In this document: piece by piece, positions 18,001 through 24,000 of the stretch
Layout: the number at the start of each line of letters is the position of its first letter
Numbering within the stretch: position 1 is the first letter of the stretch
Virus record (IMG/VR): IMGVR_UViG_2541047936_000008
Coordinates: 1 to 24,775 of that record
Origin: a virus
Lineage: Duplodnaviria; Heunggongvirae; Uroviricota; Caudoviricetes
Direction: 5' to 3' (one strand)
DNA length: 24,775 nucleotides
Program-made: the position numbers

Positions 18001-21000
18001 CTTAACAAACTCTGCCCTTCGCATACCTACGTAATTTTTAAATATCCGGAGTAATCCATGCATCGTATAGACACGAAAACCGCGCAGAAGGATAAGTTCG
18101 GCGCGGGTAAGAACGGTTTTACCCGTGGTAACCCCCAGACCGGCACACCTGCCACCGATCTGGATGATGACTACTTTGACATGTTGCAGGAAGAACTTTG
18201 TGGCGTGGTGGAGGCCTCCGGTGCCAGCCTGGAGAAGGGGCGAAACGACCAGTTGCTTACCGCGCTTCGTGCTCTGCTGTTAAGCCGCAAGAATCCGTTT
18301 GGTGATATCAAATCGGATGGCACGGTGAAAACGGCTCTCGAAAACCTTGGTTTGGGAGAAGGTGCTCCAGCTATTGGCGTTCCGTTCTTCTGGCCCTCCG
18401 CGGCAATGCCAAATACTGTAATCGACAGCTGGTCCAGTATGGTGTTTTTGAAGTTCAACGGGGCGAAATTTTCTGCCTCTGATTACCCTGTGCTGGCAAA
18501 AGTGTTTCCTTCGCTGGTATTACCTGAAGCCCGCGGTGATTTCATTCGTATCTGGGATGACGGGCGAGGGGCGGACAGTGGGCGAGCATTATTAAGCTGG
18601 CAGGCAGCAACATCTTTATCGCAATTTGGCGGTAATTATCCAGAAGGGTCCGGCCATGCGATTGCTGATTACGATGGAATATCAGCACACCAGCCAGGTT
18701 TCTCTCGATTTCAGTACACCAGTAACTCAGTAGGAGATGGTGTTAATTTTGTTGCTGTCAGACCGCGAAATATTGCATTTAACTTTCTGGTGAGGGCTAA
18801 ATGATGACCCCAATTTTTGATGAAAATGGACTGGCTACAGTGCCGGGCGATATGCGTTGTTTTTATTATGATGCAGTAACGTATGAATATACGGGCTGGT
18901 CTGATGAATATATTAATACTGGTGTAAGTATGCCCGCCTGTTCCACTGGTATTGACCCGGGCGAAAACATTCCGGGAAAAGTGGCAGTATTTACGGGTAA
19001 GGGATGGAGCCATGAAGAAGACCATCGCAATGAGACTGTTTACTCAACAGAAAATGGTGCAGCTGTTACAGTGGATTATATCGGTGCCATCAAAGACGGT
19101 TATGTCACGCTTTCACCGTTAACGCCATACGATAAATGGGATGGTGAGAAATGGGTGACGGATACCGAGGCACAGCATAGCGCCGCAGTAGAAGCGGCAG
19201 AAGCACAGCGCCAGTCGCTGATTGATGCTGCAATGGCTTCCATCAGTCTGATTCAACTGAAATTACAGGCTGGGCGGAAACTGACGCAGCCAGAAAACAC
19301 CCGACTTAACGCTGTGCTGGATTATATTGACGCGGTGACGGCAACAGATACCAGCACCGCGCCGGATGTCATCTGGCCTGAACTGCCGGAGGCGTAGGCC
19401 ATTCAATATCTGGCGCACCGGAAGTATCGACCAGTTCCAGTGCGTCCAGATAATCCAGCCACAAATTATATTGCACCAGTTCCTCACCTTTCAGGCGACC
19501 AATCGCCGCTTTACCAGGCCATTGCTTACTGTTTATGTATTCGTTGACCTGATTAATCAATTGCTGCTTTTTCAGTTCGGCTGCGGCAATTTGTTCCTCA
19601 TGAGTTGGCGGTGGAATATCAATCCATGCAGGCATTCCGTCGATGACACCTCTGTATTTTCCTTCTGGTGCTTCCTTCATAAATTCGGCAGCAACAGTGT
19701 CGTCAATTTCGATTCCATCATCGGGCCATTCGCCGGATTCCTGATAAGCGATTTTAAGCTCCACAGGGAAAAACGCATTTTTATCGGCACTGAAAATATA
19801 TTTCTGCATTTCTACCGTCCTATCGAAATATAACTGAATCTGTATTGCTGTGAGATATCACTGGTTGCCACACGCCACGCTGAATTACTGATATGTTCAA
19901 AATTTACAGACAAAACCTGCGGGGCAGGATTCGACGGGTCTGACTGAACGGCATCAGACATAACACTGACTGAAACCATCGGCTGATTAGGGAATGGTAT
20001 AGGGAAGTGTCCACTGATAAAGCGGGTCGTGTTTCCTGAAAAAGTGCCAAACTGAACAATATATCCACCTGGTAGCCTGAACCATCCCGAACCAGAAGCG
20101 AATGCTCCCATATCCGGTATCTGATTATCTCCTGTGCCCACATCCCTTTTCGCCGCTTCTCCCAAACCAACGTTTAAGAAAATGCAGAGATTATGGCTAA
20201 CTGGCATCATCCCCGGTTTTTACTCAGGGGAATGCTCATGCTTATTGGCTATGTCCGCGTATCAACAAATGACCAGAATACGGAATTGCAGCGTAATGCG
20301 CTGGAGTGTGCAGGATGTGAGCTGATTTTTGAAGATAAGATCAGCGGCACTAAGTCCGACCGACCGGGACTGAAAAAACTGCTCAGAACATTATCAGCAG
20401 GTGACACTCTGGTAGTCTGGAAACTGGACCGACTGGGGCGCAGTATGCGGCATCTTGTCGTGCTGGTGGAGGAGTTGCGCGAACGTGGCGTTAATTTTCG
20501 CAGCCTGACGGATGCTATTGATACCAGCACACCAATGGGGCGCTTTTTCTTTCATGTGATGGGTGCCCTGGCTGAAATGGAGCGAGAGCTTATTGTCGAA
20601 CGTACTAGGGCGGGCTTTGCCGCAGCACGACAAGAAGGGAGGAATGGTGGGCGAAAGCCAAAGCTGACAGTAGAACAATGGGAGCAGGCTGGCAGGTTGA
20701 TTGAATCGGGAATATATCAGCAGCAAGTCGCACTGATTTATGATCTGGGTATTTCAACGGTGTATAAAAAATTCCCTGTAGCAAGTAAACCATAACCTTA
20801 CGCCACATTGATGATCGCGGATTATGCACTATTTTTAGGTCTTGTAACCCGAGGTGGGAGTTGTTTGGTTATATGTTCAAGTGATTTTTTGCCCAAGATA
20901 GTTCTTTGGACAAAACTTTCTATAGCTTCTAGCATTTGTTCGAACTCACTTTTATTCGGGCTCCAACTGCGATGTGCGGCGGCGTTTCCTGCATCAATTA

Positions 21001-24000
21001 CAGAAGATATAACGCATGCCTCAGTGTCGCCTATGACTCCATCTTGTTTTAATTTTTCAACTTTTTCACCAAGCGGCAAACCGGGGTGAATTTGTAACAG
21101 TTCAGCAGTTCGATCAAAAATCGTCCGTAAACCGATGGACGAAAGAATGAAATGGTCAGAAGTATATGAAGAATACATTTCATTAAATATTTGAAAGAGC
21201 TGACGATCAACTGATTCAAGCTTGGATAACCATATCGGAGCTTGAAATGTTTCAGCGGCAGGATAGGTAGTGATCATATCTATAGGCGTTTCTACAAATT
21301 CACCATCACGATATTCGTGGGTAGTATGCTCACTGAAGTGTTCGTTGTGGTGATAGAAGACAGTATCACAGCCATTGCATTGGAGTAGGTGATGGTAATG
21401 GTACCCATAAACTGGATATTGGGAATCCTCCCAGCTAGTGGTTAGCTTCCCATGCACAGTGCAGTTACGTAACCCACCGCATGTAGGGCAAAGAGCCTTG
21501 AGTATTTCCTTTTTCATAAAGTCTCTGATTCTATATGTAGGTTAAGACCACTATTAGCTATACGGACCTAATAATCAATCGTGTGCAGATACAAAAAAGC
21601 CCGTATAGCGGGATTTCATGTCACTAAGGGCCGCGGCTACTTTGCGTATCTTTTTTGTCTTCTCACCGTCTGGCCGGTATTTTGCTGAGACTGCTTATTT
21701 CCAGTTTTTACTAGTGCTGTACTGGTACTGCCCAATCATGATTGGTGGGGGACGGAGTTGAAACCGCAGCCACGTCGTATGCAAGAACGCGCTGCGGTTG
21801 GCTGGTGAACTTTCGATAGTGCGAGTATTGAATGATTTCCAGCCGTTACAGATTTTACGTGTTTATTAGTGAACAAACCACTCGTCAGCAGATTCCCAGG
21901 TATCTTTCAGAGTCTCCTGAACAAAAGTTTTTGCAGAATCCTTATCTGCGGTGCGTGTAACAGAAAGGCCATCATTGCTGGTGGCTTTTACTAACACCTC
22001 AACATCGTCATAACGCTTACTGATGCGTCGGGTTAATTCTTCCTTTAACGCATCCACAGCACCGGTTGGCATTTTAGTCATTTTTTCTTTGGCTATGCAG
22101 ATTTCAATACGCATAAAAGTCCCTCCATACTGTGTTTGTATACAGTATTATTTTTAACTGTATGGATAAACAGTGTCAAGAGGTCTTATTTCTGCTCCTT
22201 TGGAGCTCTTCAAAACGATTATGTAAAGATTTCGGATACAGTTCGGTATATACCTGCCATAGCACGTTTAATGAACGATGCCCTGTAACCTGGGCGACTT
22301 CCTCAATACTAAAACCAGCCTCAAATAAGCGACTTGCCCCTTCTCTACGCAAATCATGGTATCGCAGATCCTTAATACCTAATTTGCTTCTTACTCTCTG
22401 AAATCCCGCAGTAACAGAAGTGCTGTTATATGGAAAAATGAATTCCGATTTTTGGGGCTGTCGTTGGACGATATCCCAGGCTTCCCCAAGCAAGGCTACT
22501 TTCATGTGGTTGCCTTCCTTTTTGCGTGGATCTTTCCTGTCTCTTACGAGTATAGATTTTTGTTCCTGGTCGAGATCTTCCCATCGTAACCGGCATACTT
22601 CTCCGATTCGCATACAGGACCATACAGAAAATTTGAGGATATCAACGAACGGAATTTTTGAGCATTTATGAGTAGATCGTTGTTGAAGGCCTGCAATGAG
22701 CATGTCCAGTTCATCAGATGCTGGTCTACGATTACGACGGTTTGATTTACCAATCAAACCAAGTTTAAGTAGATATGGGCGAGCGCTTTTCGCCGGGTTT
22801 GATGTGTAATTAATTCCGTATACAGGTTTGGCCGCATCCAGAACACTGCCAAGATAACTAACATCGTGGCTGACTGTTGCTGGACCTGCACCAGCGTTGT
22901 TTCTTAGCCTGCAATGTTCAATTACGTCATTTTCTGTCAGTTCAGATAGTTTGATCGCGGAGATGTCACTATCCATAAGCAGTTCCAGCACATATCTTTT
23001 AGTACGGCCTGCTTTACCTCCGGCATTTGGGTCATTTAAATATTTGTGTAGTAAGTCACGGACTGTAAGTCCGTCAACTGCATTTGATGATGGAATGCCA
23101 TATAGATCTAATTCCATCACTTTCTGTGTGCCCCATGTTTTGGCATGAGCATGTTTAGGGAATGTTTTGCTTTCCCTGTAAGTGATAACACCTTTTTCTT
23201 TGATAATCACATTACAGCGATAGCGTGGTGTGCCATCGGATTTTAGTCGTTTCTCTATGTTATAGTACGCCATTACACGACCTCGTTATTTCGGGTTCCC
23301 ATAAAACGTGGGAACCTGTGCGGGAACCTAACGCGAGAAAAATAGCCTGAAATGTTCAAAAATGCACGATAATCATGAAACACAAAAAATTAATCAAACC
23401 AGCGTGATGCCTGAAAAAACTGGTGTTTACTGGAATTCTCGGTTTAGCATTGCTCCTATGCTCGACTGGACGGACAGACATTGCCGCTATTTCTTGCGTC
23501 TGCTTTCCCGCAATACGTTGCTGTATACCGAAATGGTGACCACAGGGGCGATTATTCACGGTAAAGGTGATTATCTGGCGTACAGTGAAGAAGAACATCC
23601 GGTAGCGTTGCAACTGGGCGGTAGCGATCCGGCGGCGCTGGCGCAGTGTGCAAAGCTGGCAGAAGCGCGCGGATATGATGAGATCAACCTGAATGTCGGC
23701 TGCCCGTCTGACCGGGTGCAGAACGGCATGTTTGGTGCGTGTCTGATGGGTAATGCGCAGCTGGTTGCCGACTGCGTGAAAGCGATGCGCGATGTGGTGT
23801 CGATTCCGGTGACGGTGAAAACGCGTATTGGCATCGACGACCAGGACAGCTATGAATTTCTCTGCGATTTCATCAATACCGTTTCCGGCAAAGGCGAGTG
23901 TGAGATGTTCATCATCCACGCACGTAAAGCCTGGCTTTCGGGGTTAAGCCCGAAAGAAAACCGTGAAATCCCGCCGCTCGATTATCCGCGTGTGTATCAA

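Follow-up and report, generated by a model that had tools for sequence, protein, structure and literature searches.

The stretch of DNA analyzed here (the window) comprises 24,775 nucleotides from a virus of the Caudoviricetes (IMG/VR record IMGVR_UViG_2541047936_000008, positions 1 to 24,775). The window is 100% identical to Escherichia coli chromosomes, and the gene of interest, a minus-strand open reading frame (ORF) at 20822-21517, is found at the end bearing the integrase in a complete myovirus prophage that is integrated at dusA and has genes of e14 type (ymfR and the YmfQ family). It is flanked by a pin-like serine invertase with Resolvase and HTH_7 domains on one side and by DinI and a tyrosine integrase, followed by dusA, on the other. 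The ORF begins with ATG and encodes 231 residues plus a stop codon. In the 100% identical E. coli locus, its product bears the RefSeq name WP_001514810.1, which is used below. The G+C content is 41.7% for the ORF and 42-46% for the surrounding block, as compared with 55-60% for the adjoining tail genes. A first-pass annotation of the window had placed a 231-residue minus-strand ORF in an AT-rich block between a pin-like invertase and the dinI/int module, exactly where it was found.

20822..21517, minus strand: complete cargo gene for WP_001514810.1, "DUF4145 domain-containing protein" (ORF list, RefSeq, Pfam, and PHROG).

WP_001514810.1 is encoded by a real gene and not by a chance ORF. Among the closest homologs for which DNA was available, nonsynonymous divergence (dN) was 0.19-0.25, and synonymous sites were saturated, which is far beyond the expectation for a chance ORF and indicates purifying selection. 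Because of this saturation, per-domain ratios of nonsynonymous to synonymous divergence gave no information on diversification of the sensor domain described below. PHROG 1305 matched the protein over its whole length (5e-43); the label of this family, "DNA binding protein," is not experimental. NCBIfam returned only noise for WP_001514810.1, PADLOC v2 gave no hit, and a tblastn search of GenBank phages gave no match to the gene.

Two domains were delineated in the protein. Pfam DUF4145 (PF13643) matched residues 115-199 with an E-value of 8.8e-10 and 39 bits (gathering cut-off 23.1), taking in model positions 4-87 of 88. The profile search thus bore out the DUF4145-like C terminus noted earlier, and the paired CxxC motifs noted with it were read in the sequence as CPTC (C10 and C13) and CNGC (C47 and C50). 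DUF4145 has been assigned to the HEPN ribonuclease (RNase) superfamily by Anantharaman et al. 2013 (PMC3710099). An AlphaFold2 model of the protein (mean predicted local distance difference test score 84.2) consisted of a seven-stranded beta domain (residues 5-86), a coil (residues 87-96), and a helical domain (residues 97-219), the last of which has the helical-bundle fold of HEPN domains. The parts of the protein map to the window as follows.

21260..21517, minus strand: N-terminal Cys4 beta-rich domain, residues 1-86, putative trigger sensor.
21479..21490, minus strand: first zinc knuckle, CPTC (C10-C13), read in the sequence; CPxC is present in 92-93% of 166 family members.
21368..21379, minus strand: second zinc knuckle, CNGC (C47-C50), read in the sequence; CxGC is present in 98% of family members.
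21230..21259, minus strand: interdomain linker, residues 87-96, coil in the model, with P86 at its border and P94 and W96 inside.
20861..21229, minus strand: C-terminal HEPN (DUF4145) helical domain, residues 97-219, putative RNase effector.
20963..20992, minus strand: signature motif AGNAAAHRSW, residues 176-185, with invariant H182 (the predicted active-site His), R183 (an adjacent, noncanonical Arg), and W185.

Conservation was evaluated in an alignment of 166 family sequences spanning several phyla. The four cysteines C10, C13, C47, and C50 were conserved in 92-98% of the sequences, and the linker residues P86, P94, and W96 in 96, 94, and 92%, respectively. In the helical domain, R131, K152, H182, and W185 were found in every sequence (166 of 166 in the case of H182), R183 was conserved at 98%, and D135 at 96%. 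The consensus around the histidine was D-A-G-[SN]-A-A-A-H-R-G-W-x-P, with positions 174-178 occupied by T/V/I/A/S, D/E/N, A, G, and S/N. This combination of conserved Cys4 residues with R131, K152, H182, W185, and R183 points to a functional site under selection. H182 represents the conserved histidine of the HEPN Rx4-6H motif; the invariant basic residues R183, R131, and K152 sit elsewhere than at the position of the canonical arginine.

The family is large. When 1.84 billion cluster representatives were searched with a profile, 2,708 relatives were retrieved at E <= 1e-3, 1,408 at E <= 1e-10, and 289 clusters (50% identity) at E <= 1e-30. The best 150 relatives were almost all full-length proteins of about 230 residues, and the family ranged over Proteobacteria, Acidobacteriota, Bacteroidota, and Chloroflexota. 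Mean pairwise identity was 28% for the N-terminal domain versus 41% for the HEPN domain, the entropy of the N-terminal domain was higher, and mid-distance homologs shared 28-37% identity in the former versus 51-61% in the latter. The N-terminal domain is thus the faster evolving one, which parallels the sensor-and-effector logic of RAZR, a defense protein introduced below. Ten long variants of the family were tested, and all matched Pfam DUF4145. A subfamily of 380-507 residues (P0078, P0105, P0108, P0110, P0112, P0130, and P0164) carries an extra conserved N-terminal module of about 180 residues, which in most members includes a second zinc ribbon, CPxC...CxRC (P0110 lacks that part), and for which Pfam gave only weak DUF7351 and Lar matches.

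The genomic surroundings of the family were surveyed in 56 nonredundant loci, and no conserved partner gene was found across them. Homologs from Citrobacter and Enterobacter occupy the extreme end of prophages of the P2-like, lambda-like, and P22-like types; the enterobacterial homologs adjoin DinI, S24 peptidase, or Gtr lysogenic-conversion cargo, and four prophage types are represented. Relatives are encoded on 62 viral contigs of IMG/VR, and transposases occur among the neighbors of family loci. In a minority of loci, the nearest neighbors include GajB, a CBASS cyclase with a 4TM effector, type I specificity subunits, and MADS proteins. Enrichment of defense genes around family members is suggestive only, because ORF calls in high-GC genomes were crude and no formal background was available for the neighbor survey.

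Individual loci showed further features. Downstream of the homolog in Burkholderia lata (L009, 12062-16861), a Gabija-like pair (DUF2813/AAA_15 plus a UvrD-type helicase) is found together with a PRTase-CE/wHTH protein and a reverse transcriptase, a stretch resembling a defense island. In four Pseudomonas loci (L014, L015, L019, and L031, ~6300-9700), the gene is not at the prophage end; it is co-directional with and located between gpR/gpS and baseplate gpV. Ten Sphingomonadales loci (L025, L027-L030, L032, L034-L036, and L043, ~7650-16675) share a 100% identical family protein; the DNA on which it lies, at least 9 kb, is 97.6-99.97% identical in species of many genera (Aurantiacibacter, Qipengyuania, Novosphingobium, Croceicoccus, and others), indicating very recent spread of a mobile element. 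In P2-like Citrobacter prophages (L003-L005, 11678-12289), a Macro-domain protein of 203 residues (an ADP-ribose-binding or -hydrolase domain) is located between the tail fibre and tail-fibre assembly genes, an unusual position for such a domain.

Within the E. coli prophage, the gene occupies a slot of variable content, the boundaries and control elements of which are as follows.

20796..21756, no strand: module of variable cargo flanked by the invertase gene and by the conserved dinI-int-dusA junction (sister-prophage homology).
21518..21590, minus strand: AT-rich upstream region with a weak ribosome-binding site and a probable promoter of the gene's own.
21591..21612, minus strand: intrinsic terminator, cccgCTATAcggg followed by a T-run (sequence; stem at 21600-21612 in a terminator scan).

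Homology to a sister prophage with an empty slot, in E. coli Br_178_kylling, restarts at window position 21757; the left edge of the module is blurred by the divergence of the pin alleles (73% identity). In this near-isogenic e14-like prophage (L090, 3294-4249), pin is directly followed by dinI. The gene is carried by 34 of 5,426 complete E. coli genomes with identity of at least 99.6% throughout. The dinI-int module is present in 723 E. coli genomes, among which the content of the slot varies. In prophages of enterohemorrhagic E. coli (EHEC) with the same dinI-int module, it holds type III effectors, either NleG (DUF1076; three in one prophage) or EspS/NleG7, and in another E. coli prophage with this module it holds a DUF4376 gene (~1800-4000 in loci L091, L092, and L093 for the effector and DUF4376 slots). 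A single integrase module is thus used by prophages whose cargo differs widely. The first-pass annotation had stated that mcrA comes directly after pinE in e14, which is correct (in E. coli K-12, the two genes stand in this order where the element ends), and had regarded the position as a defense-cargo slot. Comparison across homologous elements contradicted the latter view: the position is a general moron slot, not one dedicated to defense.

The gene is convergent with the late genes of the prophage, and the terminator at 21591-21612 insulates it from dinI read-through. A consensus promoter scan upstream of the gene gave nothing convincing, so the promoter is proposed from the AT-rich leader. 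Rfam detected no RNA families over 20000-24775. The copy in E. coli ECZP248 (NZ_CP034784.1, 3476355-3477049) aligned over 695 of 696 nucleotides with 99.6% identity and may hold a one-nucleotide indel, which would frameshift the gene. Directly upstream of the pin invertase, opposed tail-fibre and tail-fibre-assembly ORFs at 19369-20210 and 18801-19397 form the classic invertible host-range arrangement known from e14, Mu, and P1. Elsewhere in the window, sharply AT-rich islands (GC 0.30-0.32) at 2501-3500 and 12501-13000 interrupt the prophage structural genes; by offset to the annotated locus, these correspond to the terminase large subunit gene (3' half) together with ymfR and to the tape-measure/DNA-circularization junction, and they could be mosaic joints or embedded cargo.

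A functional model for WP_001514810.1 is offered by RAZR, which was discovered in the functional screen of Vassallo 2022 as PD-T7-4, a "Zn finger-HEPN" protein of about 219 residues from E. coli UMB1727 (RRL46918.1; PMC9519451). Homologs of PD-T7-4 frequently overlap with an integrase gene, and its HHpred boundaries are 9-59 for the zinc ribbon and 87-175 for DUF4145 (PMC9519451, table). The protein was renamed in 2026, when its mechanism was solved (Zhang 2026, PMC13017515; PDB 9Y6U and 9Y9C). The zinc-finger domain of RAZR, which is its most variable region and determines specificity, binds ring-forming phage proteins, either the Erf-like recombinase Gp77 or T7-type portal proteins. Twenty-four copies of RAZR assemble around the ring that the phage protein forms, and RAZR's HEPN domains, for which R146 and H154 are essential, then cleave RNA nonspecifically, so that infection is aborted; RAZR by itself is nontoxic (PMC13017515).

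We consider it probable that WP_001514810.1 is a stand-alone, single-gene abortive-infection system, i.e. a HEPN RNase activated by a trigger. By analogy with RAZR (PMC13017515) and with HEPN domains in general (PMC3710099), RNase activity, trigger-dependent activation, oligomerization, and an abortive outcome would be expected. The variable Cys4 zinc-binding beta domain would recognize a protein that belongs to an invading phage or to another mobile element, and the linker with P86 at its border and P94 and W96 inside would couple the sensor to the HEPN domain. Binding of the trigger may change the oligomeric arrangement of the HEPN domains such that a composite active site is formed around H182 at the HEPN-HEPN interface. 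R183, possibly with R131 and K152, could supply the positive charge in place of the canonical HEPN arginine, for which the Parep1/8 and c2405 families, with their retained histidine and other conserved basic residues, provide a precedent (PMC3710099). The activated enzyme would cut cellular and phage RNA, translation would stop, and the infection would be aborted, to the benefit of the lysogen population and its resident prophage. With no trigger present, the protein would be inactive, and an antitoxin would hence not be needed. The location of family members at prophage ends, on viral contigs, and in some defense islands, with no conserved partners, points to defense, and the gene's own upstream terminator and AT-rich leader count in favor of this interpretation.

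Several results weigh against this interpretation. A conserved arginine 4-8 residues before the catalytic histidine, as expected of HEPN RNases, was found nowhere in the family: position 174, eight residues before H182, is T/V/I/A/S and never Arg (Ile in WP_001514810.1), and the 12 positions upstream of H182 hold no conserved basic residue in the 166 sequences. Catalysis is therefore not assured. The PADLOC model for PD-T7-4 (PDLC04109) did not match WP_001514810.1 at E <= 10 and matched only 4 of 129 diverse family members (best E = 0.021). The RAZR chain was not detected among PDB sequences at E <= 10, either by phmmer or by two family profiles; the presence of 9Y6U and 9Y9C in the searched set was confirmed by recovery of the Gp77 chain (1.4e-142). 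WP_001514810.1 is absent from the parts of the DefensePredictor table that were examined. Defense-gene neighbors were seen in only about 5 of the 56 loci, counted by inspection with no formal background control, and the E. coli slot also houses nondefense cargo. Some Pseudomonas P2-like prophages carry the family gene within the late tail operon, which may indicate a phage-intrinsic role, and the putative defense role of the family as a whole is drawn from sequence, context, and analogy.

Given the missing arginine, the main rival is a noncatalytic binding role, in which an inactive HEPN domain would form part of a zinc-dependent nucleic-acid-binding regulator or adaptor, e.g. of prophage or host gene expression. 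The absence of the canonical arginine from the entire family, the existence of motif-less HEPN domains that are regulators or binding domains (part of the MtlR and NTase-associated proteins; PMC3710099), and the PHROG 1305 label are all compatible with such a role. However, this label has no experimental basis, the near-invariance of H182, R183, W185, K152, and R131 over very divergent sequences fits an active site better, and HEPN families with a histidine and other conserved basic residues do exist (PMC3710099). In addition, the patchy, mobile-element-borne, and partnerless distribution of the family is atypical of regulators, and we regard a purely binding function as fairly unlikely. A lesser rival retains defense and changes its target: the protein might act mainly against conjugative plasmids or other nonphage mobile elements, like the DUF4145 Ishtar proteins, which cause plasmid loss. 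Ishtar1 is likewise monogenic with a DUF4145 HEPN domain, a mobile element of at least 9 kb is disseminating a 100% identical family member in Sphingomonadales, and transposases are among the neighbors. The HEPN domain of Ishtar is, however, N-terminal, i.e. the domain order is opposite, and the strongest association of the present family is with prophages and viral contigs, making this possibility improbable.

A function in the prophage's own cycle, such as shutting off the host or processing transcripts as an RNase in lytic growth, is also conceivable in view of the four Pseudomonas P2-like prophages in which tail-completion genes R/S and baseplate gene V flank the gene in the same orientation, and of the many copies within predicted viral contigs. 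In E. coli, by contrast, the gene is dispensable, as evident from the near-isogenic prophage without it and from its presence in only 34 of the 723 genomes with the same dinI-int module; moreover, it is convergent with the late genes, insulated by a terminator, and in other organisms also found outside prophages in settings resembling defense islands. We judge such a role quite improbable. The first-pass annotation had proposed a single-gene anti-phage or restriction-linked candidate. Its anti-phage half stands insofar as the gene is a solitary, AT-rich accessory cargo for which defense is plausible; its restriction half was not supported. Some DUF4145 domains are indeed fused to restriction endonuclease and helicase modules (PMC3710099), mcrA occupies the equivalent position in e14, and type I specificity subunits neighbor the gene in 1 of the 56 sampled loci. 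Yet Pfam, NCBIfam, and PADLOC revealed neither a nuclease nor a methylase or helicase domain in the protein, the window holds no partner for restriction or modification and none is conserved across the family, and the fold is that of HEPN domains, characterized members of which are RNases, so that RNA cleavage is the predicted chemistry. A module that constitutes or assists a DNA restriction system comparable to McrA of e14 is accordingly very improbable.

The mechanism class favored here, a sensor joined to a HEPN RNase, is already known; the present sequence family is a candidate for it. If active, the family would have arrived independently, as a second case, at the design of RAZR, a small sensor plus a HEPN RNase switched on by a phage protein, and would offer a natural comparison both for how general ring-templated activation is and for whether a HEPN site works without the canonical arginine. 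A bolder and rather tentative proposal is that WP_001514810.1 is the founding example of a widespread defense family of at least 289 clusters (50% identity) that PADLOC v2 misses. In such a family, a Cys4 beta-sheet sensor of new structure would be paired with a HEPN site rebuilt around the invariant H-R-x-W, R131, and K152 instead of Rx4-6H, and the class of phage trigger, and perhaps the activation geometry, would differ from those of RAZR. The family is broad and has no model in PADLOC v2; adding one would improve the annotation of prophage defense in Enterobacteriaceae, Pseudomonas, Burkholderia, and many Alphaproteobacteria. The alternation of defense candidates with type III effectors in the invertase/dinI-int slot of dusA prophages also bears on the diversification of EHEC prophages.

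Among known systems, WP_001514810.1 shares the fold of the DUF4145 clade of HEPN proteins and scores above the cut-off over the whole model. It falls into the minority of about 20% of DUF4145 members without the Rx4-6H motif and thus without the canonical arginine, and a DUF4145-zinc-ribbon fusion is already listed in Table 1 of the same study (PMC3710099). In this respect, it is like the c2405 group ("conserved H but lacks R"), although Pfam gave no match to the AbiTii N-domain of c2405. A link to HEPN-MNT toxin-antitoxin modules was not apparent: a minimal nucleotidyltransferase gene is absent from the neighbors in the window and is not conserved among 147 neighbors of the 56 loci. With McrA of e14, the gene shares only its place as solitary defense cargo directly after the pin invertase at an e14-type prophage end; McrA is an unrelated type IV methyl-directed DNA restriction enzyme without a domain in common. 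DS-38 (HEP2, WP_001313577.1) is a validated single-protein defense of E. coli with HEPN and zinc-finger modules (DefensePredictor, PMC13092281). It differs in length (366 residues), in the positions of its HEPN domain (22-153) and multi-zinc-finger region (206-364), and in its canonical RNxxxH motif; identity with DS-38 was rejected on the basis of the opposite domain order, the length, and an hhalign probability of 0.2%.

DUF4145 HEPN domains serve as effectors in the validated systems RAZR (PMC13017515), BxaP (PMC10799925), and Ishtar (bioRxiv 10.64898/2026.07.06.735840). Ishtar1 and BxaP are alike in that the DUF4145 HEPN domain is the presumed effector of a monogenic or accessory defense protein. 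They differ in that it is N-terminal and followed, toward the C terminus, by a beta/alpha domain in the case of Ishtar and by a HEAT-like one in BxaP. The closest parallel is RAZR, in the light of which the earlier statement that the gene has no assigned mechanism is outdated: DUF4145 is an RNase domain, and the zinc finger-DUF4145 layout is that of RAZR, the mechanism of which has been solved. Both proteins are products of single genes and similar in size (about 219 residues for RAZR, 231 here), and in both a conserved linker joins an N-terminal Cys4 zinc-binding domain to a C-terminal DUF4145 HEPN domain. Both combine a highly variable N-terminal domain with a conserved HEPN domain, are associated with integrases and mobile elements, and lack an antitoxin. 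By coordinates of the DUF4145 model, H182 occupies the same position as the catalytic H154 of RAZR, whereas position 174, equivalent to R146, is Ile, and the catalytic pair is thus not shared. Ahead of the DUF4145 domain, WP_001514810.1 has about 25 residues more than RAZR. The zinc finger of RAZR is a Cys4 ribbon of the RPB9 type; for the N-terminal domain of WP_001514810.1, no close solved structural relative was found. The family is separate from RAZR and large, with a possibly distinct sensor fold and a noncanonical HEPN motif, and WP_001514810.1 is a RAZR by architecture but, as judged from sequence, not by family membership.

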